Assembly (NCBI GenBank): GCA_018817165.1
Contig: JAHITY010000099.1
Coordinates: 391-64,390 of the forward strand
DNA: 64,000 bases
Direction of reading: 5' to 3'
From: Candidatus Omnitrophota bacterium
Lineage (GTDB): Bacteria; Omnitrophota; Gorgyraeia; B26-G9
The notes under the pieces: model-generated
The model's database searches: none
The model's input: the letters and a program-made list of their open reading frames with translations, nothing else
Told to the model about the DNA's origin: nothing
Shown here: positions 13,085-49,914 of the stretch, one piece after another
Position numbering within the stretch: position 1 is the stretch's first letter
How the letters are laid out: the number at the start of each line of letters is the position of its first letter
Translations under genes and position numbers: made by a program

Positions 13085-13502
13085 ATGGAAACTCCTCTTT
13101 TCGCAATTGCCTTTCCGTAATCATCTTTTCCTTCCCATATTCTAAAATATACTTCTGCTGATCCTCCGGTAGCTTTAAGAGATTTAATAGCTGACATACC
13201 CGCACACTTGAAATCCCTAGTTTTTGGGCTAGTTGGTTTTGGTTTAGCCCTTCTTCCTTCATAATTCGTGTAAACTCTAGTGCCTTTTCAATAGGATTTT
13301 CATATGCTTGTACGTACTGATAATGACGCATTTCTTTCTGCGAAACAATATTACTTTTTGGTATAAAATCTGGCTTTTCACCACGAAATAAAGTCTTCGT
13401 TTTATTCTGCCATCTGTAATGGTATGGCAATACATCAGTTACAACGCGTGAATTTGTTCGCTGTGAGTCTCGTTCGGGGAGCCAAAAAATCAGAGAGTCC
13501 AA
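13047..13502 (-). CDS. Small ParB/KorB-like HTH protein, copy 3 (track start is TTG; likely true start is an internal ATG)
   Basis: LAQKLGISSVRVCQLLNLLKLPEDQQKYILEYG; near-identical to the copy at 10130-10447. Confidence 0.5.
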   Translation of the reverse strand: MDSLIFWLPERDSQRTNSRVVTDVLPYHYRWQNKTKTLFRGEKPDFIPKSNIVSQKEMRHYQYVQAYENPIEKALEFTRIMKEEGLNQNQLAQKLGISSVRVCQLLNLLKLPEDQQKYILEYGKEKMITERQLRKEEFPSKSLTPYQNKFS

Positions 13503-13818
13503 AAGGGCTCTCTTTTTTTGTCCGCGAGAACTCGAACCTCAAAAAAGGGTATTAGGGGAAAAGACTGTTTTCCCCTATCCCGAATGGGGAATATTTCTCT
13601 GGGTTAGCATCGGGACCCCGAAGAGTTTCTTTGGGGAGTTACTTCATTCGGGGTCGGCGTACTGGAACTTCTCGCGCAAGGAAGGGGTATCCAAGGGGAA
13701 CTGAAAGAGTGCACCTTTAAGGAGTGAGCGGACCTGTTTCTCAAGGGAGCGCTTGTCCCGCCGTATTTTGGCGGGGACACGACAGGTTCGGCGAAGCGAA
13801 AGTCCTCGCGGGGGGAGC
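13474..13818 (+). repeat. Structured ~345-bp repeat, copy 1: GGGGAGCCAAAAAA box, terminator hairpin (CAGAGAGTCC-AAAA-GGGCTCTCT-T7), then a GC-rich element with a closing helix (CCGCGAG...CTCGCGG), a variable middle and a conserved 3' block with hairpin GTCCCGCC-GTATTTT-GGCGGGGAC
   Basis: Direct repeat of 18131-18444; the 3' ~125 nt are nearly identical and the closing helix covaries between copies. Confidence 0.7.
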
Positions 13819-14000
13819 TAAAAAACCTAACAAGTTGTAACTAAATAAGTTGCAGCGGGTTATTTTTTTGCAAAAATCATTGATTCGTGGTATACTTTAA
13901 AATCTTTTTTAGTATGTGATTTTAAATCCTAACTTATTAAAATTGAATAAGTTGAAAGATAAGTAGCTTTAAGGCGGAATGAGGATCATTTAGGGTAAAA

Positions 14001-17000
14001 ATGAGAAAGAAAAAAAGTATCTATAAAATAATAGTCAATATTATTATATTAGCACTTGTGCAGGTATTAGCATTTTCTAATTCTGCATGGGCTCTTGAAG
14101 CTTCTTTGCAAAAAAACAGAGATACTTTATCTCCGCAAATCCAAACAAGTCTTCCATTGATTCAAAATGCCTATAGTTTTTTAAAAGCAAATAAAGAACA
14201 GGGGAATACTCTTTTCTTGCGCACAGAGGCAAGTATTGAAAAAACGCCAAGTGAGTTAAGAAAGGACTTACTTGAGCTTATGGAATTTCTTGGTAAAAAA
14301 GATTTTAAAATTCTTATAGATATAGCTTTTAAAGATAAAGTGCTAACTCAAGATCAATATGAAGTTTTGCTTTATTGCTTAAAGCAAGGGGCTGTATCTC
14401 TTGAAAAAATAGATAGGACTTTTTCACAGCAAAGAAGGGTTGATATTACTACTGTGACCAGGTGGCTTGTAGGCACAAGTGAACAGGGAAGAAAGGAAAT
14501 CGGGGCATATCAGATAATTTATGAGGACGCTTCGCCATCTCTTAGGGAGAAAATAGATCAAAAGCTGGCGGTTTATATTAAAGAAAATATATTTGATTTC
14601 TTCTTGAATCATATGGATGCTGAAATTAAAAATGTCATGGAAAAAGCTATTGAAAACTGGCAGGGTGAAGAGGTTGAAAAAGAAATTATTAGGATTAAGC
14701 TAAGCAATCCTGGTGTTGCATGGAAAGATATATATGAGCATGAAAATGTGAACTTAAAAAAAGGCAAATTTTATAAGACCCTTAAGCGTATAAAAAAGAA
14801 TTTCAATAAAGCTATTGATAATGAGGGAACTGTAATTATTGAAAAAATAATCATAGAAGAAAGCCCTCGAGCATTGAAATATCTTGCAGGTGATCTTATG
14901 GAATTAAAGACGGAATTGCTTGATGTAATCGAAACATCAGAAAGATTAAAAGTAAAAAAAATGGATGAAGAGGAAAAAAGCTTTGTGCTTAGAATGAGTT
15001 TGTTTGAAGGTGAAAAACATAGAGCAATCGATAAGATAAATAAATTTTTTCTGGGCAGATCACAGATGTTCTTGAATGGAAGAACTCTGGAGGAGAATTT
15101 TTATGAAGGGGCAAAGAAAATAAAACAGTTTTTATTGCTGCCTGGAGGGAAATATTTATGCTTCTTTGAGCCTAAAGATGAAATGATCAATAATTCCTTT
15201 GAAAAAAATAATCTTGTTTTTGCTGTGCTAAATTCAAGCTCTAAGGCAAAAAGAATTAATTTAGATAAATATATTATTAGTGGAAAAAGCTTGAGTTTAG
15301 GAGGGAATTTTGTCTGGAACCAGTACAAGATTAATTGCTCAAATTTTCAATCTGCAAATATTGAGTTTCGGGTTGAAAATGATATCCCACGCTTTATTAA
15401 ATTATTGCAAAATAAAGAGGGGCAACAGATCAGAGATAATAAAGGAGAGCCATTAGTAATCGAAGTCTTTGATATGTTTGGACAGAAGGTGTCAGTGCGG
15501 CGTCAGCTTGCGGACAAATATTTTTTAAAACTAAAGCTGAATGATAAGAAAATTCGTTGTTCATATAATGAAGCTGAAAAAAATGTGCATGAGGCGATTG
15601 TTGATCTAAAGAGAATCAGTATTGATCTTGATTCTTGGCAGTTTAAGAAAAAACTGCGTGAAGTAAAAAAAGCTTTGTGGGTTATAAGAGGAGATCTTAA
15701 GGGTAAGGAGCAAGAAACAGCGAGGTTTATCTGTGATATGGCAGGCAGAGATGATCTTTTTGAAATACTACAGAATATTTCGATGAAGGGAATGTTTAGA
15801 TCATATTTAACTTTTCAATCAGCTTTTGATGCTTATATGGCTCGGGATAAAGATAAAAGACATTTTGACAGCCTTAACTGCAGTAAGGCGAAAGGCGGAG
15901 ATATTACTTTGCTTGATGCGGTAAGAAATTATGGGATTTTAAAGCGTAAAATAGAAGCTGAATATAAAGATGTGCATGAAGCACATAAAGAATTTATGTT
16001 TATGGATAAGAAAGATATTTCGTATGTGCAGCTTTCCATGAGAAAAGACGATGGAGGCAATCCAATGTTATTAAAAGCATTTTATAAATTTCGCCAGGAA
16101 CTAAAAGATATATATGGTTTTACTTTGCCTGATAATACACATAAAAGAAAAAGTAAAAAGGAAGTTCAAGCCTTTCTTGATAATATTCCGGAGCGAGAGC
16201 AGACTCCTAAAAAATTGAAAGAAAATAATCTTTGGTGGGTTTATAATGGAGCAAAATATTATAAAATTGTATTGCCAAAAGAAAGAGATTTTATAGATAA
16301 TACAGGATATGATAGCTATAAAGAAAGAATTAATAATAGAAATAAATATCAAGAAGTGGACATGTTTGAATTGTGGCATAGCATGGAAACGGATCAGGAG
16401 GCAAGGAATCAGTTAATTGAATATTTTATGCCGATGATAATAGATACTGTTGAGGATTTTAATGGTCGAAAAGGAAAATATATTACAGAACATTCCCAGT
16501 TTTATCTGGATGGCGATATTAGTAGGGCGAGTGTGGCAATGATTGAGGCAATTGATGACTGGCATCCTGAGATGGATATGATGTTAGATGGTTTTGTTAA
16601 GGATCGGATTATCTCAGCGTTTAAGAAAAGTATAAATGAATTTTATAAAGATAAAAGAATAATGCAGTCATCGAATACGCCTAAAGGGAATAAAGATGGG
16701 AATTATGCAGGTAAAAGTGGTCCTTTTGGCAATGGGAGGATTAATACTCTTGATGATAAATTTGAAGCAAATACTGTTGCTGCTGATGATGCATTCGATA
16801 GGGTTCAGCGTATGGAAAGGGCAGTTGCCGGCATAGGTAAAGGGGATTACAGCTTCTTAGTTGGTAGTGAATTTGAAATCAATGAATCTATGCTTATACC
16901 CAAAATTAGAAAACAGCAATTTGCTGAAGAACTGCGCAGTTATCTGTTAAAGCGAGGTGTCCTTGAAAATATTTCAGGTAAATTTGCTATTTGGGTTATG

Positions 17001-17990
17001 GGCAGTATGGGAAATATCGGGCTTGCTCGAAAAGGAGACAGCGATGTTAATCTCATAGTGCTTATGCAGGCAAGCAATGGCCAATGTAAAGAAGCTGTTT
17101 GGAGTCTTGAGGCGCTGATCGGTACAGGAGAAATATTTGAGGGTAATGATGAAAATTTTATTTTAGAAATCGGAAAAAACGGGAGCAGACAGGAGCTGGA
17201 TTTTTATGCTCCGCAATTTGTTTCATTGCTTGAGAAATATGAGGTAGGAATAAATGGTAAAGGAGCTGCTTCTATTGAGGTGGTTTCCACAAATGCAGCG
17301 GGCTATGGAGATAATCGGGCATTGAAGCGGGCGCGTTTTCATGTGGTTGATGATATTACCGGGATGGGTACCAATGGGATATTGGTATTGGAATCTGATG
17401 AAGGGATAGCCCAAGAACTTAAACAACAAGTCAGAGACAGGTTTGTTGATGATTTTGAGTATCATATTGATTTTGCGAATGAGTACTTAATTTATTTTTT
17501 TGCAGAGCAAGTGGAAAAACTAAAATCAACGATTGATAAGAATAAAAAGGTTGAATTACCTTTAGAGCCAAACGTTGAAATTCAAGAAGAGGCTTCTGAG
17601 GAATCTTCCATATTTCAGAAAGCAGATTCGCCTAGAAATAGAGGCTTTTTTCAGGATAAGGTCAGGCTAGAGGTGTTTAATGGGTTTGTATCGATAAGAT
17701 TAATTGATCTTATCGAAGGCGGCGTGATGGCTTTTAAAGATGAGTGGCGGCATATGCTAACTGTATTTGAAGGAAAAAATATTTTTGTGGATGACTATCT
17801 TAAAACAGATAATGTAGACCCCGGTAAAGAAGAAGCGATTGAAGCGTTAAGTGATGAATTATTGATTTATCTTCAAAAAGAGATTCAGCAAATGTCTGGT
17901 CATCATGAAAAAGGGGGGCAGGGTTGGACATGCAGCAGCTTTGACTTTGAAATGTTAAGAGATAATGCAGAAGTAAAATCAGCAATATAA
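14001..17990 (+). CDS. Giant (1329-aa) signal-anchored, Lys/Glu-rich protein with an embedded minimal nucleotidyltransferase (Pol-beta superfamily) motif
   Basis: N-terminus MRKKKSIYKIIVNIIILALVQVLAFSNSAWA (signal peptide or anchor); about aa 993-1015 WVMGSMGNIGLARKGDSDVNLIVL fits hG[GS]-x10-D-x-D-h (GlnE/GlnD/CD-NTase-like); AT-rich and Lys-rich composition; strong TTGCAA-N17-TATACT promoter at 13868-13896. Confidence 0.55.
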   Translation: MRKKKSIYKIIVNIIILALVQVLAFSNSAWALEASLQKNRDTLSPQIQTSLPLIQNAYSFLKANKEQGNTLFLRTEASIEKTPSELRKDLLELMEFLGKKDFKILIDIAFKDKVLTQDQYEVLLYCLKQGAVSLEKIDRTFSQQRRVDITTVTRWLVGTSEQGRKEIGAYQIIYEDASPSLREKIDQKLAVYIKENIFDFFLNHMDAEIKNVMEKAIENWQGEEVEKEIIRIKLSNPGVAWKDIYEHENVNLKKGKFYKTLKRIKKNFNKAIDNEGTVIIEKIIIEESPRALKYLAGDLMELKTELLDVIETSERLKVKKMDEEEKSFVLRMSLFEGEKHRAIDKINKFFLGRSQMFLNGRTLEENFYEGAKKIKQFLLLPGGKYLCFFEPKDEMINNSFEKNNLVFAVLNSSSKAKRINLDKYIISGKSLSLGGNFVWNQYKINCSNFQSANIEFRVENDIPRFIKLLQNKEGQQIRDNKGEPLVIEVFDMFGQKVSVRRQLADKYFLKLKLNDKKIRCSYNEAEKNVHEAIVDLKRISIDLDSWQFKKKLREVKKALWVIRGDLKGKEQETARFICDMAGRDDLFEILQNISMKGMFRSYLTFQSAFDAYMARDKDKRHFDSLNCSKAKGGDITLLDAVRNYGILKRKIEAEYKDVHEAHKEFMFMDKKDISYVQLSMRKDDGGNPMLLKAFYKFRQELKDIYGFTLPDNTHKRKSKKEVQAFLDNIPEREQTPKKLKENNLWWVYNGAKYYKIVLPKERDFIDNTGYDSYKERINNRNKYQEVDMFELWHSMETDQEARNQLIEYFMPMIIDTVEDFNGRKGKYITEHSQFYLDGDISRASVAMIEAIDDWHPEMDMMLDGFVKDRIISAFKKSINEFYKDKRIMQSSNTPKGNKDGNYAGKSGPFGNGRINTLDDKFEANTVAADDAFDRVQRMERAVAGIGKGDYSFLVGSEFEINESMLIPKIRKQQFAEELRSYLLKRGVLENISGKFAIWVMGSMGNIGLARKGDSDVNLIVLMQASNGQCKEAVWSLEALIGTGEIFEGNDENFILEIGKNGSRQELDFYAPQFVSLLEKYEVGINGKGAASIEVVSTNAAGYGDNRALKRARFHVVDDITGMGTNGILVLESDEGIAQELKQQVRDRFVDDFEYHIDFANEYLIYFFAEQVEKLKSTIDKNKKVELPLEPNVEIQEEASEESSIFQKADSPRNRGFFQDKVRLEVFNGFVSIRLIDLIEGGVMAFKDEWRHMLTVFEGKNIFVDDYLKTDNVDPGKEEAIEALSDELLIYLQKEIQQMSGHHEKGGQGWTCSSFDFEMLRDNAEVKSAI

Positions 17991-18130
17991 AAATATATTA
18001 AATAAATATAAAATATTCAGCAATCAATGTAATGTGGTTTAGATGCTTGTTTAACAATTAGAACACGGCACATTAAGTTGTAAGTTTTTAAGCCTTTCTG
18101 AATCTTAAAAGTTACGAAATTTGTCAAATA

Positions 18131-18444
18131 CGGGGGAGCCAAAAAAATTAGAGAGTCCTTTTGGGCTCTCTGATTTTTCAGCGAGGACGAAGAACCTTAA
18201 AAAAGGGTTTTAGGGGAAAAGATGCCCGGGCTTACAAATCATCTTGAGAGCCTTCTGATGTTTCATGTTCAGGCATTCTCATAGGATTGTTCCCTTCCTA
18301 TCTCGAATGGGGAATATTAAGGGGGAACTGAAAGAGTGCCCCTTTAAGGAGTGAGCGGACCTGTTTCTCAAGGGAGCGCTTGTCCCGCCGTATTTTGGCG
18401 GGGACACGACAGGTTCGGCGAAGCGAAAGTCCTCGCGGGGGAGC
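18131..18444 (+). repeat. Structured repeat, copy 2 (direct repeat of 13474-13818), preceded by a remnant of the ParB-like gene 5' end
   Basis: CGGGGGAGCCAAAAAAATTAGAGAGTCCTTTTGGGCTCTCTGATTTTT, then closing helix CGAGGAC...GTCCTCG, then the identical 3' block with hairpin 18382-18405. Confidence 0.7.
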
Positions 18445-18506
18445 TTGTTTTTTAATCCATTATTATAGAAGCTTATAGTAAGGGGACTTTTTTTTATCTT
18501 GACAAA

Positions 18507-18531
18507 TAGTAATGATTACTATATAGTAATC
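18507..18531 (+). promoter_or_regulatory. Fur-family (Zur-like) operator TAGTAAT-G-ATTACTA with an overlapping half-site, inside the TTGACA-N17-TATAGT promoter of the fur-family gene
   Basis: Perfect 7-1-7 inverted repeat at 18507-18521 plus TAGTAATCAT at 18523-18532; -35 TTGACA at 18499-18504. Confidence 0.65.
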
Positions 18532-18533
18532 AT

Positions 18534-18971
18534 ATGGAAAAGGAAGCGCAGGACCTTAAGAAAATGTTCTATGATAAGTGTGCCGAGAAGGGATTAAAAA
18601 TAACCCCTCAACGTTTGCTTATTTTTGATGAGCTCTCAAAAGCTAAAGATCATCCTACGGCCGATGCCATCTATAGACGTGTACGCAAGAGTCTATCGAA
18701 TATTTCTTTCGATACTGTCTATCGGACTTTATTGTCTTTTACTGAAATAGGTATAGTTAATCTTGTAGAAGGTTCTGGACAGCAAAAACGCTTTGACCCT
18801 AATCGACATCTACATCATCATTTCAGATGTATTAAGTGCGACACTATTTACGATTTTGAGAATGATGCATATAATGATATTGCCGTGCCGAAGGCTGTGC
18901 AGAAACAAGGAGTTATTATCAATAAGAGGGTAGTGTTGGAAGGTATTTGTTCGAAGTGTAAGGGGAAGTAA
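18534..18971 (+). CDS. Fur-family metalloregulator (Fur/Zur/PerR)
   Basis: ITPQRLLIFDEL...HPTADAIYRRV...ISFDTVYRTL DNA-binding domain; HHHFRC..C and C-terminal C..C metal sites. Confidence 0.8.
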   Translation: MEKEAQDLKKMFYDKCAEKGLKITPQRLLIFDELSKAKDHPTADAIYRRVRKSLSNISFDTVYRTLLSFTEIGIVNLVEGSGQQKRFDPNRHLHHHFRCIKCDTIYDFENDAYNDIAVPKAVQKQGVIINKRVVLEGICSKCKGK

Positions 18972-18988
18972 TATTTTTTTACCTATTG

Positions 18989-19007
18989 AATAGTAATTAT
19001 TACTATT
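18989..19007 (+). promoter_or_regulatory. Second Fur-family box, a 19-bp perfect palindrome AATAGTAAT-T-ATTACTATT upstream of the PTPS-like gene
   Basis: Perfect inverted repeat about 110 bp upstream of 19118; same xxGTAATnATTACxx core as the box upstream of the regulator. Confidence 0.6.
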
Positions 19008-19117
19008 TAGTAGTCAAACGCAATTAAAGGAAGGGGTGATTTAGAAAATAAAACATGATTAGCGGAGGGCAGTAAGTAATATAAAAATAAAACACTAACC
19101 AAAAGGAGGGAACTATT

Positions 19118-19656: not shown

Positions 19657-19973
19657 GTTCTTTTCTATTACAAGTTGCGGAATAGAGAGAAGCCAGTAAA
19701 ATCAGAGAGTCCAAAAGGGCTCTCTTTTTTTGTCCGCGAGGGCAAAAACCTCAAAGGGAGTTTATAATCTGATATTATATAGTAGTTCATGTGAAAGTAT
19801 AAGATAAAGCAATGCTTCTATTAAGTAATAAAACATCAATATTGATAGCTTAGTGCAATTATAAGTATTTAAAGCATTATATTTGATATATTGTTGAATA
19901 TTGCAATAATGTATCAAATATGATATATTATATATTATAAGAGTCGTTAAAACTTCAAAAGTGAGGTGTTAAT

Positions 19974-21610: not shown

Positions 21611-21995
21611 AAAATACCTTTAAAAATCAAACAACCAGAAATGTGTTTTGAAATAATTCCGTATAGTCTTTTATCTCTAGCCAGTTGCGAAACTCGTCTA
21701 GCCCAGGGAGCTAAAAAATACGGAAGTCTATTTGGGCTTCCGATTTTTTTACTGCGTTTTGTTTCTGCGCGGAAGGTGGGATTTTTAATGAAGTATAATT
21801 TATGAAATATCATGAAATTCGCAATTGAATTATCTCCTATTTAATAAAAATAAGAAAACTGTTGCGAGTAATAGGTGAAAGCTTGTTCACTTTCTATAGG
21901 TAAAATTTAAAACACCTTGAATTAATTTATGATTGGAGATACAATTGTATTAATATTTATTCGGATAAATAAAAATCAAATAAAATTCAGGATAT

Positions 21996-24278: not shown

Positions 24279-25063
24279 AAAAAGAGAAGCGTTATCTTGA
24301 AGATGTGGGCATGAAAAATTTACCATTTCCCATGAATGTTGTATCCAAAGTTAGTAAAGACGGGCAATTTACGATTGCCGATATTTCTATTTCTGCGCGG
24401 ATTATGCAGGAATTTGAAGCTGATTGGATCGATAAGTTTATCCAGATTGTGCATAACCATCGTGATCGAATAGGGACAAAAACGCTTAAAGTTAATATCA
24501 AGGATTATGTCAAACAGTTGAATGCTTCAACAGTAAAAATTGATTTTAAGTATCCATTTTTTATTGAGAAGCGCACGCCTGTATCCAAAGAAAAATGTTT
24601 AGTTAGGTACCTGTGTACTTATTCGGTTAAGTCTAATGGAGAAGCAAAACCTACTGTTATTTTTAAGATAAAGATTCCCTGTATAACTACATATCCTGTA
24701 TCATTTGAAAAATCCGGGGGGCTTTTTGGTCAATTAAGTACAATGGTTATAGAAACAGAATCAAAAAAAGATATTTATCCTGAGGATCTGGTTGCGCTTG
24801 TGGATAAACATGCTTTAGTTCCGATATACTCATTTTTAACCAGAGAAGACCAGGAGTTTGTTATTCAGAAAATACATTCAGAAAAGAAAACTAGCGTTGT
24901 GCTGGTTGATGAAGTGAAAGATGAACTAGCCCGGATGCAAAATATTGAATCATACAAGGTTGATTGTTTTAACTTTGGGATGCTGCATTCTTATGGGACA
25001 TCTATTGGAACCGCAAAAAGCATGTGGATCCCCGGAAGTTCTTTTGAAGAAAATGAAATATAA
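24275..25063 (+). CDS. Hypothetical protein, possibly a divergent T-fold (FolE2/MptA-like) protein lacking the catalytic HMSR-type motif
   Basis: N-terminal LEDVGMKNLPFPMNVV resembles the FolE2 N-terminal region; no catalytic motif found; its start overlaps the upstream stop, so the three genes look like one operon. Confidence 0.25.
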   Translation: MKKEKRYLEDVGMKNLPFPMNVVSKVSKDGQFTIADISISARIMQEFEADWIDKFIQIVHNHRDRIGTKTLKVNIKDYVKQLNASTVKIDFKYPFFIEKRTPVSKEKCLVRYLCTYSVKSNGEAKPTVIFKIKIPCITTYPVSFEKSGGLFGQLSTMVIETESKKDIYPEDLVALVDKHALVPIYSFLTREDQEFVIQKIHSEKKTSVVLVDEVKDELARMQNIESYKVDCFNFGMLHSYGTSIGTAKSMWIPGSSFEENEI

Positions 25064-25361
25064 TAGTTGATTTTTGCGATAAAAGGGGTCATATTGGAAA
25101 ATGTTGATAGAATAATAGCTTCTAGATACTGGGAGATCTTAAATCAGGACATTTTTTAGTGAAAGAGGAAGCCTGAAATATAATTATAAAGTTTTGAGTT
25201 AAAAGTAAAACCTTCGCCAGAAAAAGGCGGGGGTTTTTGTTTGTTATTTTTGTTGCTTTGGATTTGATGGGGTATCATATTGTATTTTCTTTACAGGGAA
25301 TTATTGGATAAATATTAAACGATACTTTATTATAATAATACAACTGATTTAGAGGAAAGAA

Positions 25362-30363: not shown

Positions 30364-30930
30364 ATGAAAAAAATAAAAAACAATACAGAAGCAATATTAG
30401 ATAAATATGCATCGTATGCGGCACTGATTCCTGCTATTAGTTTAATCATTTTTATGCTAATGCATGCTTTTTTGGGAATTTTAAACTTTGCGCATGATAT
30501 TTCAAGAATGATTAATACCCGAGATTTCGGCAATTTTCATCCTCAATCGCTCATATGGCTAGAGGTAGTAGCAACTATTATAATTCTCCTTAAAGCTTAT
30601 AAAGTTTTAATGTCTTATGTGAAAAATCACCATCTTATGCTTAAGGATTTATTAGAAATAACTTTTACTGCTTCCTGGTTAGAGCTTTTATTTAATGCTT
30701 CAAAATATGAATTAGATATGAAAATTATTTTTCTAGTTTTAGGATTATCAAGTATATTAATTTACTTAATATTCTATTCAAAAATAACGTCAATAAATGA
30801 ACTCTCCCATAAAAAAGAGGACGCTATAGCTAATTTTGAATCTTTTTCTCAAAAAAATGAAAGTAATAGAATAATACGGGACATCTATTGGAACCGCAAA
30901 AAGCATGTGGATTCCCGGGACTTCTTTTGA
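30364..30930 (+). CDS. Hypothetical membrane protein; its 3' end runs into a duplicated copy of the 3' end of gene 24275-25063 in another frame
   Basis: ORF track; TM-rich; 30878-30954 duplicates 24995-25071. Confidence 0.4.
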   Translation: MKKIKNNTEAILDKYASYAALIPAISLIIFMLMHAFLGILNFAHDISRMINTRDFGNFHPQSLIWLEVVATIIILLKAYKVLMSYVKNHHLMLKDLLEITFTASWLELLFNASKYELDMKIIFLVLGLSSILIYLIFYSKITSINELSHKKEDAIANFESFSQKNESNRIIRDIYWNRKKHVDSRDFF

Positions 30931-31098
30931 AGAAAATGAAATATAATAGTTGATATTTTTGATCTCAAACTTGAAACTAATTTAACCGCGGAGTTAAAAA
31001 ATACGGGAGTCCTTTTGGGCTCCCTGTTTTTTTAGAGTCTTTTGCTTTATCCTCCAGAAGCTCCCAAAGAAAAATCTTGACAGAATTATATTTTTGTT

Positions 31099-37849: not shown

Positions 37850-38208
37850 TTTTATAATTAAAAAACTCATTCAGCATTAAAAGTAAAAATGTACGCGATG
37901 GTCATTCTGTTGAATTTACGTGTTCTGTGGTGGGGAATTGTTTAAATTTAAAATATAAAGTGCGCGTCGTAGGATGTAAGTATCATGGTTTCTGAAGTCA
38001 TAAATATTTGTAAATAAATGTTTTGCATTGTTAAAATACGTCGTGGAATAAGCTTTTTGACAGTTTGATGGAGCAGCTGTAAACTAAAAATATAGCTATG
38101 AAGTCCCGAGTTGAGAAGGAAGAAATCCCGGACTATAAAAAAGTAAAACCTTCGTCAAGAAAAAACGGAGGTTATTTTATTTTCAGATAAAATCCTAATG
38201 AAATTAGA

Positions 38209-40933: not shown

Positions 40934-40934
40934 A

Positions 40935-43609: not shown

Positions 43610-44329
43610 ATGGACGAACTTATGGATAATATCAGAGCGCTTTTTTTTGATGTCGGGGGGACTATATTTGATTGGAAAAATACAGCGCGGGAAAAAATTC
43701 AGACATTGGCTGCTGAAAAGGGTCAAGTAATGGACTGCGAAGCCTTCGCCGTTGACTGGCGGGAAGAAATGATGAGAGTTCACATGCAGGTTAGACAGGG
43801 AAATCTGCTATGGATAAATTCTGATGATATGCATTTAAGGGCATTAGACAGTTTGACAAATAGCTATCCGTTTTTAACTTTAATTGACCGAATGTCTCTG
43901 GTGAAATCTACATGGCATAATCTGAAAGCTTTTGCCGGAGCTCCTGAAGCAATCAGCCGTTTGCGCAGTAAATATACGGGTGTAGTTCTTTCCATACTGA
44001 GCTGGGAAAGCATTGTCAACAGTTCAAAAAGAGCCAATGTGCAATGGGATGGGATCCTTTAGTGTGAGTTTTTGGGTTATTATAAACCTTCTTTACAAGC
44101 TTATCTTAAAGGGATTAGCCTCTTGGGATTAAAACCTGCTCAGACCATGATGGTTGCAGCCCATAAAGGTGATTTGGCAGCGGCTCAGACTGCCGGGATG
44201 CATACGGCATATGTTCGTGTCCCAGAAGAAGATTATCTGGGTGAAGGCTTTGGGAAAGTAGGCGAGATAAAGTTTGATATTGAGGCGGATGGTTTTGAAG
44301 ATTTATGTAATAAGCTAGAAGTATATTAG
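43610..44329 (+). pseudogene. HAD-superfamily (haloacid-dehalogenase type II-like) hydrolase interrupted by an in-frame TAG at 44060-44062
   Basis: ORFs 43610-44062 and 44072-44329 are in the same frame (..WDGIL*CEFLGYYKPS..); motif I FFDVGGTIFDW (D-x-Y/G-G-T), motif III YKPS, motif IV HKGD. Confidence 0.6.
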
Positions 44330-44383
44330 AACAGCGTTCTATTAAATGATTAAGCATAATTTTCTAAGTATTTTTATACATTA

Positions 44384-44462
44384 AAAAGTTGCAAAACTTG
44401 TCTAATATGGGGAGTCACTAAAATAAAAAAGGAGTCGATTATGGCTCCTTTTTTATTTTATA
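44384..44462 (+). repeat. Roughly 79-bp repeat, copy 1 (AAAGTTGCAAAACTTGTCTAATATGGGGAGTCACTAAAAT box plus A-tract/T-tract hairpin AAAAAAGGAG-TCGATTATGG-CTCCTTTTTT)
   Basis: Near-identical (3 mismatches) direct repeat at 49835-49914; belongs to the GGGAG-AAAA plus hairpin family. Confidence 0.75.
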
Positions 44463-44654
44463 ATACCTCTAAATAATTAATTTTAAGGTTATAGGGTAAT
44501 CGGGTTTATAAAGAAAAATCAGTGAAATTTGCAAATTATCAATTAAGTGGTATACTTTATAAAATACTTTATTAAGCACTAATGTTTATAGCTTAAAATA
44601 TGCTGAATCACTGTTTGGTTTAAAAATTCTATACTATATAAAAGGATACGGAAA

Positions 44655-47600
44655 ATGTTAAGAAGAATATTAAGTCTCATATTGATTTACAGTTTTGTAT
44701 TATTGCCAGTGCAGCCGGCATTAAGCGGAATTGCCCATTCTTCTGCTCAAACTATTGTTGTTTGCCAGACGCTTTCTCCAACTCTTGTTCTAAATGAACA
44801 AAACATGAGGGGGCTGTTTCTTGATGCTAGTACTTGGGATCTAGCTGCTTTGTCTGAATCCATTGAACTAGAGAATGATTTAATAAAAGAAAATATAAAA
44901 TCAAGGTATTTTAACGGCCATCAAATTCTTAGTATTTCAAAGGAGATTTTTGATTCAGCAATAAAAGTAAGCAAATTATTTTTTGAATATGCCTTTCCAA
45001 AAGCAAAAAAAACCATCAGAAATTCAATATTTCTGATTACTGTGTTCGCACAGATACTTATGCCGATATTCTCTTTTGCGGGAATCGGTACTTATATGGC
45101 GGCAAGCAATATGTTGGTTACATTTGATTCTGATAGCGGGGAAGTCAAGATGATGACTCTTTCCGGGAAAACATTTATAAACTATATCCTGGGAAAAGAT
45201 GGGAAAAAAACACCCCTGATGCTTACTCCCGGTTATGATGAAGATAGCATTCTTAATCAGTTTACCGCGCCAAGCGAAGCGGGAAGTGCTATTGTTAATA
45301 TGAATGATGATCCGAGAGCCGCAGCGGATCCGTTCACTGATTATTATAAGCTGACCTATACCAATAAAGACATTGATCCTGCAATTGCTGCTGCAATACT
45401 TAATTCAGAGGAAACAGGCTTGAGAGCAGAACCAAACATTATGCATGAGGTCAATGCTATTAATAATTATTTTGATCCGAATATAAAACCTTATGACCTT
45501 GAAAATTGGGGACTTCTGGCTTTAAAAATACCCAGTGCATGGGATATATTAAATCAATATGACAGCAATGTATTTCCCCCAGTAGGTGCAGGGATTATGG
45601 ATAGTGGTGTTTGGGATTACAATTCAAATCTGCAAGGAATGGTAATAAATCCTGAGCAGAGCTATTTTGATCCGAACAGTGACAATCCCCACGGAACTAT
45701 AGTTGCCGGTGTCTTGAAAGAAGCAGCGCCTTATTCGTCTGTAAAAATTATTAATGCCGGAGGCTTGCCCGGCGGATCCGGAACCACGGAATCTATTTTA
45801 ATGGCGATCAAAGACCTGATTGATCTTGCCATTGAAAATGGGCTGGATAAAAGGCTGATCGCAAATTGCAGTTTCGGCTCTGATGGGCTTATGGAAAATT
45901 CCATTCTAGATGCTTGGAAACGTGCTGCTGAACTAACCAATATTTTTATTGGTCCTGCCGCGGGAAATATAGGAACATATTTTGATCAAAATAATTGGGG
46001 GCATTATTGGGAAGGACCGCTTTTTCATCCAGTAAGTTCGATTAATATAAATGGGCAAGCATCAGATTTTAGTAATTACAGCCAGTGGATTCCCTATGCT
46101 TCGGGTGAAGATATCTTGGGCATTTTTCCTGATGGACATACAGAGTATGTGAGCGGCACATCTTTTTCCGCACCTTATAGAAACGGGATTGTAGCAGATA
46201 TAATAATAAACCAGGCTATGGTGCATGGGTTTTATTCTGTTCCGTTTGATCATGAAGAAATTGCCAGCATTATCTGGAATACTGGTGATATCAAGATCAA
46301 TACTGTGGATAGAAGACAGATGCTGGTTGTTAATGCTGAACAAGCGCTTAAGGTGGCCTATCCGGGTGTGGCGCTGATTGAAAATGAGGATAGAAACATA
46401 GTTGTATATAATGGGCGTCCGATTATCGGAACAGCACGTGTATACGGAGGCTGGGAGCATTTTTCTTCATACACGCTGCAGATAAAAAACTTTGCTGAAG
46501 ATGAATGGACAACGATTAATTATAGTGAGACTCCGGTAACTAATGGAGTGCTGGGTACGCTTGATGAAAATATAGCTGAAGGCTGGTATGCTTTGCGTTT
46601 GACTGTTAAAAACACAGAAGGCCAGGAATTTGTATGTGAGGGCAATATCGGGGTTAATCGTTCGCTTGTTCCGGGTTGGCCGCAGGAAATGCCAGGATGG
46701 GTATATTCAAATATATTAGCACAGTTGAATGATTCGCCAGACAAAGAGATGTTTATGCTTATGTCTGGCAAGAATAGTATTGTAAAAGACTCGCAAGGTA
46801 ATGATGTAGCGGGTTGGGAAAATGCCTCTGAAACAGAGCGTCCTTATGGCTTAACATTGACAGCTGATTTTAGTAAAAAAGATGGAACCGAGGGAAGCGA
46901 TGGAATTGACGAATTAATAGTCAATGAATTCCCTGCTACGATAACGGTTATGAATGCAACTGGAACAGTTAAATGGAGTGAAAATATCTGCAAAGCAGAG
47001 TATAGTTATTGTCTGGTGCAGGATATGATTGTTGTTGATTTTGACGCAGACAAAAAACCAGAACTGGCAATAACCGCATATGTTGTGGATAATGAAAAAA
47101 ACCTTTGGAATTTAGTGCAGGTATTTGAGCTGGGGAATAATGGGATGAAAGAAATTTATCAAACTAAAGTCCCGGAAGCCCGGTACGGCAGTACTGTTTT
47201 CTTGTTTGCAGTAGAAGCAGGCAACAATAAAAAAAATCTGGGTATTGGAATAAGCGGCAATGATGGCCAGAGCAGAACAGATAATAAATATGAGACTAAA
47301 TTAAGTCTTGTTGATATTACCCTGGGTAAGGAAATCGCTAGCCGCAATTTTATTGATAAGGTAATATACAAAACACCTGTATCTGTGGATTCTGATGGGG
47401 ACAATAAATCAGAAATATTTATCCTGGGATTAGATGCTGAGCCTTTAGACCGGAATGAGCCAACAGTTGCTGAGGTCTATGGCTTGACTAGTGATTTAAA
47501 AGATTCATTGCCGGGGTTTCCGGTTAGATTAGCGGGGGTTCAGACACCACCCATAGCTTTGGCTACAGAGCCTGCAGCCGGCAGAACCATGGGCGATGAT

Positions 47601-48887
47601 AAGGGCTGGCGGATAGTTTTTGGTATGGAAGGGGTATATGACAAGACGAATCGATTGGTTATAGTGCCCATCGATGATCCTCAGAGCACTATGCAAATCA
47701 TGACAGCTCCCTCTGTGAATAATCCATTGATAATCACAGTTGATAATACTGTGGGTGATAATGAGCAAAACAATGAAGATTATATGCAAACGCTTGTTGC
47801 TGTTTCTGTAAACCGAGGAATTGCACTATATGACCTTAAAACAGGGAAATTAGAAAGGTCAATACCATATGATGATTATCCTACAGCAGGAGTGGTAGCT
47901 TTTAATGGTCAGCATGGGTCGATTCTTTTATCTGCTGGAGCAGGATATCATCCTGTGTATAAATATACAGATTATCCCGCTGAAATGTTTCTTATGGAGG
48001 TTAAGGGTTTAGATGGTTCGAAAGTGAAAGGTTGGGTCCAATGGGGTGAAGTCCGCGGTGAGGGGCAGACAGGATTGCCGCAAATTCTGCCATTTGATAA
48101 AAATGATGAAGATAGAGAAGATGATATAGATAATTCTGATGATGGGCAAGAAGATCTGGATGCCTCGGATGATAATATCGATAAAGATAAAGACCCGGAA
48201 GTAAAAAAACCTGGTTCACGACGTGGAGGACTTGGACGGAGTACGGATTGGTTGGGACGGATTGAAATCAAACCAATAGTATCTAATGAGGTTACGGAGC
48301 CAGAAAAGATAGAGGCAGAAGAGCTCAAGACAATGCCGGAAAAATTAAAAAATAATAAGGAGCGTGATTCTAATTCTAAGAAAGCAGCAGAATCCACTGT
48401 TATTTCAGATAAAAAATATCCGGTTGCGAGCAAAGTAAAACCAGAAGAGCAAAAAGTGGAATATGCGCTGAATATTTCTGAAAAAAAAGCCGACAAAGCT
48501 ATTGAACATACGCAAGATTTGTCAGGAATATTTAATTTATTAAGCGTGCTGTCTATTGCCTGGGTTGCAGTGTGTATTGGGGGAATAGGCACGGTTACAG
48601 TTCTTACTGGATTAATAGTTGCTCGTCTATGGGAACGGCTGAACAGGTCAAATAAACAAGCAGTTGAGGATACTGATACTGATGTTTCTTCGAAGTCTCC
48701 TAATAAAACGCAGGCTAAAAAAGCGATATTCATGGGATTTGCACAGCATAAGCAAGGAAAAAATGCTTCAAAACAGACAGTGAGCACTGATCCGGATCAA
48801 CATAAATATACCGTGATACCCCCTGCCCTCCAAGTTGAAAAAAGGGATATTCTATTTACTTCTTACGCGATGGAGCGTTCAATCTAA
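44655..48887 (+). CDS. Giant (1410-aa) cell-surface subtilisin-like (S8) serine protease with FG-GAP/beta-propeller-like repeats, an acidic low-complexity region and a C-terminal TM anchor
   Basis: Signal peptide; S8 catalytic triad regions GAGIMDSGVWD (Asp), NPHGTIVAGV (His), VSGTSFSAPY (Ser); D.D.DG repeats; C-terminal TM helix LSVLSIAWVAVCIGGIGTVTVLTGLIVARLW. Confidence 0.7.
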   Translation: MLRRILSLILIYSFVLLPVQPALSGIAHSSAQTIVVCQTLSPTLVLNEQNMRGLFLDASTWDLAALSESIELENDLIKENIKSRYFNGHQILSISKEIFDSAIKVSKLFFEYAFPKAKKTIRNSIFLITVFAQILMPIFSFAGIGTYMAASNMLVTFDSDSGEVKMMTLSGKTFINYILGKDGKKTPLMLTPGYDEDSILNQFTAPSEAGSAIVNMNDDPRAAADPFTDYYKLTYTNKDIDPAIAAAILNSEETGLRAEPNIMHEVNAINNYFDPNIKPYDLENWGLLALKIPSAWDILNQYDSNVFPPVGAGIMDSGVWDYNSNLQGMVINPEQSYFDPNSDNPHGTIVAGVLKEAAPYSSVKIINAGGLPGGSGTTESILMAIKDLIDLAIENGLDKRLIANCSFGSDGLMENSILDAWKRAAELTNIFIGPAAGNIGTYFDQNNWGHYWEGPLFHPVSSININGQASDFSNYSQWIPYASGEDILGIFPDGHTEYVSGTSFSAPYRNGIVADIIINQAMVHGFYSVPFDHEEIASIIWNTGDIKINTVDRRQMLVVNAEQALKVAYPGVALIENEDRNIVVYNGRPIIGTARVYGGWEHFSSYTLQIKNFAEDEWTTINYSETPVTNGVLGTLDENIAEGWYALRLTVKNTEGQEFVCEGNIGVNRSLVPGWPQEMPGWVYSNILAQLNDSPDKEMFMLMSGKNSIVKDSQGNDVAGWENASETERPYGLTLTADFSKKDGTEGSDGIDELIVNEFPATITVMNATGTVKWSENICKAEYSYCLVQDMIVVDFDADKKPELAITAYVVDNEKNLWNLVQVFELGNNGMKEIYQTKVPEARYGSTVFLFAVEAGNNKKNLGIGISGNDGQSRTDNKYETKLSLVDITLGKEIASRNFIDKVIYKTPVSVDSDGDNKSEIFILGLDAEPLDRNEPTVAEVYGLTSDLKDSLPGFPVRLAGVQTPPIALATEPAAGRTMGDDKGWRIVFGMEGVYDKTNRLVIVPIDDPQSTMQIMTAPSVNNPLIITVDNTVGDNEQNNEDYMQTLVAVSVNRGIALYDLKTGKLERSIPYDDYPTAGVVAFNGQHGSILLSAGAGYHPVYKYTDYPAEMFLMEVKGLDGSKVKGWVQWGEVRGEGQTGLPQILPFDKNDEDREDDIDNSDDGQEDLDASDDNIDKDKDPEVKKPGSRRGGLGRSTDWLGRIEIKPIVSNEVTEPEKIEAEELKTMPEKLKNNKERDSNSKKAAESTVISDKKYPVASKVKPEEQKVEYALNISEKKADKAIEHTQDLSGIFNLLSVLSIAWVAVCIGGIGTVTVLTGLIVARLWERLNRSNKQAVEDTDTDVSSKSPNKTQAKKAIFMGFAQHKQGKNASKQTVSTDPDQHKYTVIPPALQVEKRDILFTSYAMERSI

Positions 48888-49227
48888 TTGCTGTTAAAAA
48901 ATTGTGCCACCAAAGGTCATGAGTATATTAGTAGATATGCTCAGTGTAACTCATTTAATACGGGAGCAAAAATAATAAAATCACTACATGGTTAGTGGTT
49001 TTTTATTCTGTTTAGCAATTCGGTGAGAAGCAAAAGGGATTTTAAAGAAAAAAAGCGTTTTCTCCCTTATCGGATAAATGTACTTTTTTGCGCAAGGTAG
49101 AGGAACGGCGATTATTTTTATCCTGAGCTTAGAAAATAAAAATTAGCTTGAGATTAAAGTAATCCAGGAGTATATTAGCATAAGAAGAACAACTTTGGGA
49201 TTGAAAGAATTAGTTTCGAGATTCCCC

Positions 49228-49259
49228 GTCCCAAAACAGTGGGACACGCGAGGGTTGCC
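49228..49259 (+). repeat. Short REP-like hairpin GTCCC-aaaacagt-GGGAC followed by ACGCGAGGG, a miniature of the conserved hairpin in the 13.5 kb and 18.2 kb structured repeats
   Basis: Shares GTCCC..GGGACACG(A/C)..AGG with 13755-13790 and 18382-18417. Confidence 0.45.
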
Positions 49260-49305
49260 CCTAAAAATTTAAAGGACCATCTTTTTCAATTTCAGAAAGA
49301 CATTT

Positions 49306-49788
49306 ATGAGTGTAATAGAGAAGGCTTTTGCAGTTCTGCAAAGAATAGAATTTGTCGCAATGGCTACTTCTGGTAAAAATGGAAAGCCAAATTCCTCTTC
49401 TAAATTATTATTAAAGATAGAGGGCAGCACGGTGTATTTTATAGATTATAGTATCGGCAGAACCGCCGAAAATCTACAAGTTAATCCGGAAGTTTCTTTA
49501 TCTTTTATTGATATTAATTCTCTGCTTGGTTTTAGATTGAACGGTAAGGTGAAAATTATTGGAAAAGGTAAGACCTTTGATGAATGCCGGAAAGATTTGC
49601 AGAAAAAAGAAATAAAGCTTTCCGCGGAGCGGATTATTAGAGGCATACACGAGGGTAAGTCGTATAAAGAATTTGAATTGGCAATTCCTGAACGCTTCTT
49701 GGTGTATAAGGTCAAGGTCGAAGAAGGTTGTGAAATAAGCCCTCGCGGTGAAATAAAACGTGAAGACAGTTCTGTCATCCATGGCTAA
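49306..49788 (+). CDS. Pyridoxamine 5'-phosphate oxidase-like FMN-binding split-barrel protein
   Basis: EFVAMATSGKNGKPNSSSKLL..GSTVYFIDYSIGRTAENLQVNPEVSLSF pattern typical of the PNPOx-like family. Confidence 0.5.
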   Translation: MSVIEKAFAVLQRIEFVAMATSGKNGKPNSSSKLLLKIEGSTVYFIDYSIGRTAENLQVNPEVSLSFIDINSLLGFRLNGKVKIIGKGKTFDECRKDLQKKEIKLSAERIIRGIHEGKSYKEFELAIPERFLVYKVKVEEGCEISPRGEIKREDSSVIHG

Positions 49789-49834
49789 TTCTCGGCATAG
49801 TTTTCATTCAATGGTCATGGATTAAACTCATTCA

Positions 49835-49914
49835 AAAAGTTGCGAAACTCGTCTAATAGGGGGAGTCACTAAAATAAAAAAGGAGTCGATTATGGCTCCT
49901 TTTTTATTTTATAA
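49835..49914 (+). repeat. Roughly 79-bp repeat, copy 2 (direct repeat of 44384-44462)
   Basis: AAAGTTGCGAAACTCGTCTAATAGGGGGAGTCACTAAAATAAAAAAGGAGTCGATTATGGCTCCTTTTTTATTTTATAA. Confidence 0.75.

Follow-up and report, generated by a model that had tools for sequence, protein, structure and literature searches.

Terminator-bearing repeats resembling the 3' end of tRNA-Asn as probable junctions of integrated modules in a Candidatus Omnitrophota genome

The window analyzed here, a stretch of 64,000 nucleotides from a Candidatus Omnitrophota bacterium, carries a family of short intergenic repeats whose good copies cluster in its accessory-gene part (0–50 kb); GC content is even along the whole window. 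The contig starts 6.9 kb upstream of the window with TTGTCCGAGGTTCGAGTCCTCGCGGGGGAGCCA, a tRNA-Asn-type 3' end, followed by a terminator. It begins inside this tRNA-like sequence, of which just the 3' 33 nt are visible, with the T arm intact. ARAGORN found no tRNA or tmRNA gene in the window itself. The tRNA end is directly followed by a large serine recombinase, a DUF4145 protein, an ImmA-like peptidase, an XRE regulator, Prim-Pol/DUF5906, a restriction-modification system and a PIN protein, and this recombinase-bearing element stops at window position 7237 with the direct repeat CGGGGAGCCAAA. We propose that the repeat at this position is the right end (attR) of a 14.2-kb element that starts at the tRNA-Asn end.

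A first-pass annotation had listed seven copies of the repeat (family 1) between 13441 and 49914, and all seven were found there, on the + strand (copies 1–7 in Table 1). The layout of a copy is an 18-nt box, 2 nt, a core of the form NNGGGGA-G-CCA, an A-run and an intrinsic terminator, the box being degenerate in the copies at 13441, 19671 and 30971. A 17-nt form of the box, allowing up to three mismatches, occurred 3 times versus 0.07 expected. To the original list we add two copies, at 10506 and at 7237 (core and terminator only), and degenerate boxes at 50786 and 54538. The GGGGAGCY-plus-terminator part also forms the 3' ends of a ~300-nt element, module B (at 13811, 18436 and 49972). All copies have one orientation, both inside the window and inside each other locus, and GGGAGYY was present in intergenic DNA 13 times on the + strand versus 2 times on the - strand. 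Copies 6 and 7 are 94.6% identical over 92 nt, and copy 4 lies 72 nt 3' of the HipA stop codon. The annotation had also described hairpin stems that vary between copies yet stay paired, each followed by a T-run, and this description held; the repeats contain genuine-looking intrinsic terminators, as predicted from sequence, with terminator-scan entries at 13492, 13834, 19704 and 21721. This variable terminator is the sole palindromic part of the repeat. Against Rfam, the whole window gave no match at gathering thresholds, and E-value mode gave nothing of note for 13–22 kb, family 2 (below), module B of locus L072 and the Atribacterota variant of the motif.

Table 1. Repeats and associated features in the window (window coordinates)
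Feature	Position	Strand	Description
Family 2 copy	1616..1707	+	sigma-70-like promoter upstream, small hairpin AGTCC..GGAC, A-run, terminator AAAACCTTCG..CGAAGGTTTT
HTH_ParB-type ORF	6843..7277	-	no obvious start codon; reads ..FGSPKWLERR.. across core
Junction repeat without box	7237..7298	+	GGGGAGCCAAA (7237-7247), terminator hairpin GAGCGAAC..GTTCGCTC
Junction repeat	10506..10586	+	T-arm-like GTGAGTCTCGTT, core CGGGGAGCCA (10531-10540), "type-2" terminator AAACCTTTGTAAC..GTTACAAGGGTTT
Copy 1	13441..13520	+	degenerate box/T-arm-like, core GGGGAGCCA (13476-13484), terminator 13492-13513, T-run
Module B copy 1	13521..13870	+	GC-rich, structured, ~300 nt (GTCCGCGAG ... GCGAAAGTCCTCGCGGGGGGAGCT), type-2 terminator 13821-13868
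Copy 2	18101..18180	+	box variant AGTTACGAAATTTGTCAA, core GGGGGAGCCA (18132-18141), terminator 18149-18172
Module B copy 2	18174..18446	+	ends in AGTCCTCGCGGGGGAGCT; 73% identical to module B copy 1 over 351 nt
Copy 3	19671..19760	+	box partial (AGTTGCGGAA), core degenerate, terminator 19704-19725, then the start of module B (first ~30 nt)
Copy 4	21682..21750	+	exact box, core CCAGGGAGCTA, terminator 21721-21742
Copy 5	30971..31035	+	box and core degenerate (CGCGGAGTTA), terminator GGGAGTCC..GGGCTCCC
Family 2 copy	38097..38182	+	behind TTGACA-17-TAAACT; no Rfam match
Copy 6	44384..44462	+	box with 2 substitutions, core TGGGGAGTCA, terminator stem 18 bp
Copy 7	49835..49914	+	exact box, core AGGGGGAGTCA, terminator as in copy 6
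Short module-B-like remnant	49915..50031	+	ends in GCGGGGGAGAC, then type-2 terminator
Degenerate box	50786..50815	+	directly 3' of DUF3108 stop codon
Degenerate box and GGGAG remnant	54538..54564	+	
RAYT-type Y1 transposase gene with own inverted repeats	61660..62402	+	outside families 1 and 2

A second family had been reported at three places; two are good copies, 77% identical and each preceded by a sigma-70-like promoter, and the third (about 25185–25240) is partial only. Both families had been interpreted as REP/MITE-like elements that double as terminators and may be substrates of the RAYT transposase at 61.7 kb. Dispersed, co-oriented intergenic repeats with terminators were indeed present, but neither the REP/MITE nature nor the RAYT link held up. 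Short multi-copy intergenic repeats with hairpins are in keeping with REP/REPIN- or MITE-like elements, and the window has a RAYT-type gene (61717–62376; REP_Tyr_transpos, E=2e-20) whose orthologue at locus L075 adjoins DUF3108. However, this gene is flanked by perfect inverted repeats of its own (18–21 bp, GGGACACAATACTTAATT at 61664 and 62382). These have no relation to either family, and only a single degenerate copy of them lies elsewhere in the window. Family-1 copies were never seen as inverted pairs, and their boundaries have no terminal inverted repeats and no target duplications. The conserved 18-nt box is not palindromic, RNAalifold gave no consensus structure for 22 box copies (-0.58 kcal/mol), and the box is conserved across phyla, whereas REPs are species-specific. 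Movement of the family by the RAYT at 61.7 kb is thus hardly credible.

Judged by its sequence, NNGGGGA-G-CCA is part of tRNA-Asn, namely its acceptor 3' strand, the discriminator and the CCA. Box copies align to the tRNA-Asn end at fixed spacing: box, 2 nt, 7 nt, G and then CCA, CTA or TCA. The end of module B and the tRNA-Asn-type end that opens the contig agree at 19/19 positions; in module B copy 1 the final ~19 nt match the tRNA-Asn 3' end, and at loci L026 and L072 the final 19 nt of the module are identical to that end. In another Omnitrophota locus (L016), a full tRNA-Asn ends ..CGAGGTTCGAGTCCTCGAGGGGGAGCCA and is followed by a type-2-like terminator, an ACR3 arsenite pump, the box with ACGGGGAGCCA, a terminator, a DNA-alkylation-repair gene and a weaker box, in this order. 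Since the conserved part of the repeat is a copy of the tRNA-Asn 3' end, it points to att-type integration scars and not to REP/MITE elements.

The copies are also mosaic. Similarity between them stops exactly at the boundary between GGGGAGCC and AAA. The copies at 10506 and 13441 share their left side only, up to GGGGAGCCAAA (left part 92% identical, right part different), and those at 13441, 18101 and 19671 share their right side only. Cores bound each of two tandem ~3-kb AbiEi/AbiEii modules; some core-to-core intervals are 9–13 kb long and contain ordinary operons. With sequence identity to tRNA-Asn, an array headed by a tRNA end and a recombinase, mosaic breaks and mobile-type cargo, we consider it probable that family 1 represents att-type junction repeats from the tRNA-Asn 3' end in a tandem array of integrated modules.

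The proposed process comprises the following steps. Mobile elements would enter the tRNA-Asn 3' end by site-specific recombination, using an attachment site with a tRNA-end look-alike (the box side) on one side and a terminator on the other. Each repeat would then consist of a diverged T-arm copy (the 18-nt box and 2 nt), the 7-nt acceptor 3' strand, discriminator G, CCA and the terminator. Once the element is integrated, its terminator would end the rebuilt tRNA gene. Repeated integration at one tRNA would stack modules in a single orientation, and at every internal joint the upstream module would be followed by box, tRNA-like core, terminator and the next module. In older modules the recombinase would have been lost. 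A recombinase with mobile cargo between repeats is found in the first element only and not at the box-type joints; integration as the origin of every box-type joint, like the enzyme responsible, is what we infer. We found no recombinase adjoining box-type copies, and a XerD-like query, approximate and so of limited sensitivity, matched none of 727 ORFs from 75 loci and the window. The sole recombinase-like ORF in another locus (L026) overlaps a likely opposite-strand gene and is probably spurious. Also counting against this reading are the class of the one recombinase seen (serine recombinases normally leave only 2-bp identity) and the boxless right end of its element, the long core-to-core intervals with ordinary operons, the even GC content, the constancy of the box across phyla and the lack of copies in viral, phage and plasmid collections.

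The repeats reach well beyond the window and are not a local motif. Since a genome scan with the bare 18-mer gave 67 matches versus about 69 expected, only matches to the extended motif were counted. The extended motif was present at about 17 loci, which carry the labels Omnitrophota, Zixibacteriota, Firestonebacteria or Planctomycetia; about 14 Atribacterota-type loci had a variant of it, and the box is 18/18 identical across phyla. A metagenome scan with the 3' end of module B returned 2 loci only, one of them a duplicate of L062. The 20-kb core region of a relative had one remnant only, and collections of viral contigs, phages and plasmids held no relevant copy. In three genomes (that of the window and two others of Omnitrophota), the box stands directly behind DUF3108 with differing neighbour genes, and by this comparison the gene and its box appear to travel together.

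Alternatively, the box and the tRNA-like CCA end could act in cis as an RNA module of mRNA 3' UTRs, a signal for binding, processing or stability that is coupled to the terminator, passed on vertically and multiplied by duplication. A parallel is offered by the tRNA-like t-elements that occur where plant mitochondrial mRNAs end. In the window, and in at least 9/17 Omnitrophota-type loci, a co-directional gene has its stop codon 3–110 nt before the box, the box is retained at the orthologous DUF3108 position, and in one copy (L019:2075) a 22-nt insertion lengthens an AGTTGC/GCAACT stem. The hairpins, too, seem optimized as RNA on the box strand: a G+C-rich hairpin with T-run was present in 41 copies from the window and other genomes, and when each strand was folded separately, the box strand was favoured in 32 of them (mean ddG -3.5 kcal/mol, Wilcoxon p=2e-5, copies not all being independent). 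Terminators that still stop transcription of the upstream gene would explain this strand-specific pairing. Against an RNA module, the box lacks a consensus structure, and the repeats hold the 3' strand of the acceptor stem alone, which makes a tRNA-like fold impossible. Several copies (L021, L040 and L075:2676) have no co-directional gene upstream, and for these a DNA joint fits better than a 3'-UTR element. Mosaic breaks, the core-bounded recombinase element and the arrays anchored at tRNA-Asn would also be left unexplained. We therefore regard the RNA module as unlikely.

Even less likely, and by a wide step, are independent small-RNA genes or attenuators, with a promoter just upstream and an RNA running from box to terminator that acts on the downstream gene or in trans. 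Similarity does begin sharply at AGTTGC, -10-like hexamers lie 5–9 nt upstream in several copies, and an SD-like GGGGAG and an A-rich single-stranded stretch precede the terminator. However, the promoter-score profile has no distinct peak at the box start, the downstream genes have no function in common and are served by promoters of their own past the terminators, and there is neither an Rfam match nor a conserved structure. Several other roles of the box were rejected: a promoter (on inspection, the hexamers are wrongly spaced for sigma-70, sigma-54 and ECF types, and the positional score profile has no peak), a riboswitch or leader (downstream genes unrelated) and a DNA-uptake sequence (strict orientation and cross-phylum conservation). 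The box also resembles the complement of 16S rRNA around position 1100, which we took to be probably chance and set aside.

From its conservation, the box must presumably have a function of its own, because a decaying scar would not stay 18/18 identical across phyla. One possible, still doubtful, explanation is that the box and the sequence to its left are the severed 3' end of an integrase gene lying across the attachment site, a gene cut in two when the element integrates into the tRNA-like core. The gene's tail would remain at the distal end of each module, encoding ..W-L-P-x-L-D-E-F-R-N-W.. in Omnitrophota, ..WWRLVDEFRNFCMSDETEKVYxKLEE..C in Atribacterota and the GSP..RTF..HTH_ParB piece in the serine recombinase element. 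Joints of tail, core and terminator would accumulate into an integron-like platform that stacks self-terminated modules at tRNA mimics in several candidate phyla. In the first element, whose right end has no box, the recombinase ORF crosses the core without a stop codon, its frame there being the one in which the HTH_ParB-type ORF at the other end reads across the core, and simulated excision fuses the two in frame. Related ORFs lie at 10130–10447 and 13047–13502. Among the best 150 of 798 homologues, all of at most 270 aa, there was no unsplit recombinase–HTH_ParB fusion; a word-indexed search for a larger protein with the LDEFRNW motif returned the query itself only, and the Atribacterota peptide matched solely ORFs of 33–76 aa. 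If true, a split integrase would explain the strong conservation of the box and would extend a gene architecture of archaeal viruses to bacterial serine recombinases.

Read as att-type junctions, an unexplained repeat family becomes a map of module boundaries, with about a dozen joints over 50 kb of an uncultivated Omnitrophota genome. The units between the joints were probably acquired one by one at the tRNA-Asn gene, and such a map would allow a direct reading of gene-gain history in candidate phyla that cannot be grown. The 18-nt box with the tRNA-like end provides a searchable signature.

Among known systems, REP/BIME elements with RAYT are likewise short, multi-copy intergenic repeats near gene 3' ends, with hairpins and a possible influence on transcript ends. 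Family 1, in contrast, has no palindromic REP unit with a conserved head and no inverted pairs, the repeats flanking the RAYT are unrelated to it, and its conserved part is a tRNA 3'-end copy. With integron cassettes and attC it has in common a co-oriented array of units that end in a recombination-site-like repeat, gene and site moving together, and hybrid joints. Unlike attC, the site does not form an imperfect palindrome of R''/L''/L'/R' boxes, and the box misfits the RYYYAAC/GTTRRRY core sites; neither IntI nor attI was seen, the approximate XerD-like query detected no tyrosine recombinase, the units have their own promoters and terminators, and the site mimics a tRNA end. SSV-type archaeal integrase genes contain attP and are split upon integration. 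The recombinase ORF described here similarly runs through the core and joins the HTH_ParB ORF in simulated excision, but it encodes a bacterial large serine recombinase with no unsplit form among the 150 top homologues, so that the likeness is a hypothesis.

In conclusion, tRNA-end repeats at the joints of mobile modules are best read as an already known kind of genome scar. Islands and prophages integrated at tRNA or tmRNA genes, such as the asn-tRNA-associated islands of Enterobacteriaceae, carry direct repeats of the tRNA 3' end, tandem arrays included, and Prochlorococcus islands contain several partial tRNA 3' repeats. The present array differs from them in the density of its joints (about 12 in 43 kb), in the constant 18-nt box beside the core that is common to candidate phyla, in the terminator at every joint, in having a large serine recombinase instead of a tyrosine integrase and in the ordinary operons of some modules. 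Like them, it has direct repeats that represent the tRNA 3' end with CCA, all in tRNA orientation, a recombinase gene adjoining the tRNA-proximal joint, cargo for defence, resistance and regulation, and older, recombinase-less modules farther from the tRNA.

The family-1 repeats, intergenic units joining an 18-nt box to a terminator hairpin, are best explained as junction repeats derived from the 3' end of tRNA-Asn in an array of integrated modules. All seven instances listed in the first-pass annotation were found, on the plus strand. From 5' to 3', a copy comprises the box AGTTGCGAAACTCGTCTA, two variable nucleotides, the core NNGGGGA-G-CCA (acceptor 3' strand, discriminator and CCA, as at the 3' end of tRNA-Asn), an A-run, a hairpin and a T-run. 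The CCA is sometimes replaced by CTA or TCA, and the box is degenerate in the copies at 13441, 19671 and 30971. As a 17-mer (GTTGCGAAACTCGTCTA), the box occurs three times in the window at ≤3 mismatches, against 0.07 expected. Further plus-strand copies are listed in the table. Good copies lie in the accessory-gene portion of the window, 0-50 kb, and 20 kb of core genes in L073, a locus of a relative, held just one family-1 remnant. Two copies of an 89-nt repeat (24992-25080 and 30875-30963; 92% identity) each extend into the 3' end of a gene, the two genes being unrelated, and the family-1 copy at 30971 follows closely after the second of them.

A complete tRNA-Asn(GTT) with the 3' end ..CGAGGTTCGAGTCCTCGAGGGGGAGCCA is present in the Omnitrophota locus L016, followed by a terminator (AACCCTCTGTGAC..GTTGCGGAGGGTT) of the same type as that behind module B, a GC-rich element treated below. 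The order in L016 is tRNA-Asn with its terminator, an ACR3 arsenite pump gene, a 61-nt spacer, box and ACGGGGAGCCA with a terminator, a DNA-alkylation-repair gene, and a weaker box. We also retrieved the first part of the contig to which the window belongs (L076; ENA ERZ27247128 k141_1220794, 71,088 nt, with the window starting at contig position 6969). It opens with TTGTCCGAGGTTCGAGTCCTCGCGGGGGAGCCA, that is, variable loop, intact T arm, acceptor 3' strand, discriminator G and CCA of the tRNA-Asn type, and a terminator (GGCAGAAC..GTTCTGCC) comes after it. When these ends were aligned (alignment A6), the contig-start tRNA end was matched at every position by the final 19 nt of the module B copies of two loci from elsewhere, L026 and L072, and the window's two module B copies were one or two bases off. 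The 10506 and 13441 copies resemble T loop, T-stem 3' strand and acceptor strand (GTGAGTCTCGTTCGGGGAGCCA), and box copies align, with divergence, to the T-arm region (GCGAAACTCGTCTAAT vs GGTTCGAGTCCTCG). An Atribacterota variant keeps the order and spacing of the parts (box, 2 nt, 7 nt, discriminator, CCA), but its acceptor-like strand differs (AGCCTCC-A-CCA). The terminator hairpin of the tRNA-Asn end (L076 44-76, GGCAGAACTTC..GAGGTTCTGCC) has a near-identical counterpart in three Atribacterota units (L009, L010, L037), upstream of a mini-ORF and likewise preceded by GGGGAGCCA-like sequence. The matching hairpins suggest that related elements are common to Omnitrophota and Atribacterota.

Judged from its sequence, the stretch from the contig-start tRNA end to window 7237 is a putative integrated element of 14.2 kb; 12 nt of the tRNA 3' end recur at both of its ends as a direct repeat. 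A large serine recombinase lies directly behind the tRNA end, and CGGGGAGCCAAA with a terminator stands at window 7237, the end of the element; this right end has no box. Downstream lie two tandem modules of ~3 kb, each with AbiEi, AbiEii, a further gene of no known identity and a minus-strand HTH_ParB-like ORF, and the same core closes each of them (positions 10531 and 13475). The AbiEi/AbiEii toxin-antitoxin duplication (7334-9055 and 10740-12462) is 68% identical over 1.7 kb, and the small gene behind each copy differs between copies. Next in the array are module B, a 1329-aa gene and a second module B, and then more modules, whose ends lie at 19671, 21682, 30971, 44384 and 49835.

Features of the array and of related loci, with their coordinates
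Feature	Sequence	Coordinates	Strand	Remarks
Large serine recombinase	L076	3-1583	minus	527 aa; behind tRNA end; Resolvase, Recombinase, Zn_ribbon_recom domains
DUF4145			minus	same element, after serine recombinase
ImmA-like M78 peptidase			minus	same element
XRE regulator			minus	same element
DUF5659 and Prim-Pol/DUF5906			plus	same element
Two C5 methylases and BpuJI-type endonuclease	window	1979-5399	plus	
PIN protein			plus	same element
HTH_ParB ORF	window	6843-7277	minus	after PIN protein
Family-1 copy	window	7237-7298	plus	additional; core and terminator only
Family-1 copy	window	10506-10586	plus	additional; unlisted in first-pass annotation
Degenerate box	window	50786	plus	additional
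Degenerate box	window	54538	plus	additional
Module B copy 1	window	13521-13870		element itself 13521-13822
Module B copy 2	window	18174-18446		
Module B short remnant	window	49915-50031		
Module B	L062	1198-1509		
Module B	L026	7063-6661	minus	
Module B	L072	790-569	minus	
Type-2 terminators	window	13821-13868, 10547-10579, 49990-50030		
Type-2 terminators	L073	9905-9940, 14680-14710, ~15330-15365		
Type-2 terminator	L016	4935-4895	minus	behind tRNA-Asn gene

The joints between modules are mosaic. The left sides of copies 10506 and 13441 are 92% identical over 388 nt up to GGGGAGCCAAA and their right sides are unrelated; copies 13441, 18101 and 19671 have a common right side (terminator and start of module B) and different left sides. 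This is the pattern predicted by recombination at the core. Under the proposed model, a joint would be composite: its box side would be part of the module before it, and its terminator side part of the module after it. An element integrating into a tRNA 3' end would have to supply a terminator for the rebuilt gene, which would explain the same-strand terminator after every core. No recombinase was found beside the box-type joints; the one present, a large serine recombinase, is of a class that usually requires just 2-bp identity. Ordinary operons occupy some intervals between cores, and GC content is uniform along the window.

GGGGAGCY, an A-run and a terminator also form the 3' end of module B, a GC-rich element of ~300 nt (210-310 nt) with conserved 5' and 3' ends and a variable middle. 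It is closed by a 10-bp helix (CCGCGAGGAC/GUCCUCGCGG), and it folds much more stably than shuffled sequence (z=-5.3 in L072 and -2.7 in the window copy); Rfam held no match. Module B may represent cargo, as a structured RNA, or instead form the arms of an integrative element that lacks cargo. Insertions of ~90 nt within module B were observed in L026 (7000-6950 and 4725-4665, minus strand), both carrying a short ORF (MEFHEHKFVIELIPR.. and MECCEHKFVIELIPR..).

Next, one genome per species was scanned with the 18-mer box. The bare 18-mer gave 67 matches, against ~69 expected by chance by our own estimate. The full extension ATACGGGGAGCC with a terminator was present in ~17 of the 67, on contigs labelled Omnitrophota, Zixibacteriota, Firestonebacteria or Planctomycetia. 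In ~14 more, mostly Atribacterota MAGs, the box is followed by CTAGCCTCCACCA or CTATGCTCCACCA, and some such contigs under non-Atribacterota labels may be mis-binned. The motif is not restricted to the window, which comes from a Candidatus Omnitrophica MAG: copies exist in other genomes and phyla. A profile search added copies in the same loci in constant orientation, e.g., four within 7 kb of L075. Since the box is identical across phyla, it is under a constraint of its own. One Treponemataceae MAG has six copies (L008, L027, L028, L029, L054, L067) of a different repeat containing the same 18-mer (AGTTGCAAAACTCGTCTA), preceded by the inverted complement GTTTTGCAAC and directly followed by the hairpin CCTTAAAAAAA..TTTTTTTAAGG.

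In three Omnitrophota genomes the box stands behind a DUF3108 gene (protein identity 74-100%) amid differing flanking genes; therefore gene and box travel as a unit. If the box were a 3'-UTR element, it would fit awkwardly with the copies that have no co-directional gene upstream (L021, L040 and L075:2676), whereas a DNA joint is unaffected by them. Genes downstream of copies are unrelated (Fur, HipAB, acetate kinase, TetR, S8 peptidase, DUF3108). A promoter role for the box was considered and rejected, as no distinct promoter signal lies just upstream. The box showed no consensus structure, and family 1 has no Rfam family.

The proposal that the repeats are REP/MITE-like substrates of the RAYT at 61.7 kb did not hold. 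Family-1 copies never form inverted pairs, and terminal inverted repeats are absent. The gene for the RAYT-type Y1 transposase (219 aa, 61717-62376) has perfect inverted repeats of its own on either side (GGGACACAATACTTAATT, about 21 bp, at 61664 and 62382; locus 61660-62402). These are unrelated to family 1 and family 2, and their only further copy in the window, at 54718, is degenerate. This reading therefore fails on its defining features. A close RAYT orthologue lies in L075 (1-631), directly upstream of DUF3108. Of the second hairpin family annotated in the first pass, two copies stood (1616-1707 and 38097-38182, 77% identical), but the site at ~25185 matches the terminator part only. In both good copies a sigma-70-like promoter precedes a small hairpin (AGTCC..GGAC), which is followed by an A-run and a terminator. 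The arrangement resembles that of a small transcription unit or a leader; Rfam gave no match, and the fetched loci had no copies.

The claim that the family-1 repeats contain terminators holds at the level of predicted structure. Stems vary among copies yet remain paired, and a T-run follows each. To compare strands, each strand of 41 hairpins (window plus other genomes) was folded separately. The box strand folded better in 32/41 and the opposite strand in 7/41, with a mean difference of -3.5 kcal/mol (Wilcoxon p=2e-5, the copies being partly non-independent), because a G·U pair on the box strand is an A·C mismatch on its complement. As RNA of the gene strand, the hairpins are therefore predicted to act as terminators. 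Terminators of one recurrent kind, 'type-2', have a conserved stem (CCCTTGTAA .. TTGCAAGGG) and a loop of about TAAATAAG; they occur in several Omnitrophota genomes, in some places without the box. Apart from a single gene and three ParB-like ORFs on the minus strand, everything identified by Pfam scans of the window is encoded on the plus strand. The whole length of the window has a strongly positive GC skew (0.05-0.35), and this skew adds to the strand bias of G-rich motifs there.

We hypothesize that an integrase gene straddles attP and would be split by integration. Across 12 Atribacterota copies, variation in the 48 nt to the left of the box is concentrated at one nucleotide in three (mean entropies of 0.28, 0.20 and 0.69 for the three codon positions of the reverse strand; permutation p=0.0007). 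On the reverse strand these 48 nt read ..FC(M/L/I)xDETEKVYxKLEExIGxC-stop, and the frame continues through the box (..VDEFRN..) and core (WW..). This mini-ORF (..DEFRNFCMSDETEKVYxKLEExIGxC), occupying the ~60 nt to the left of the box, was found in L005, L009, L010, L018, L035, L037, L039, L042, L048, L050 and L052; many copies lack a start codon, and the corresponding gene predictions are all short ORFs of 33-76 aa whose N-termini are arbitrary. At the contig start, the serine recombinase ORF reads through the terminator and tRNA end with no stop before the contig end (..LPMLQFGSPARTRTSD), and at the far end of the element a start-less HTH_ParB ORF (..FGSPKWLERR..) is in the same register across the core. 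Simulated excision joined recombinase and HTH_ParB (a 133-aa tail) into a single 650-aa ORF with a proper stop. Among 798 homologues of the ParB-like ORF, conservation begins exactly at GSP..RTF, i.e., at the core, with unrelated sequence upstream; the best 150 of the 798 included no long recombinase-ParB fusion. A split integrase gene would account for three observations: reverse-strand ORFs that lack a start, conservation of a coding type next to the box and, in part, how constant the box is.

In conclusion, an array of modules joined at tRNA-derived repeats is a structure of a known kind; the element family is new, comes from candidate phyla and has some unusual features.
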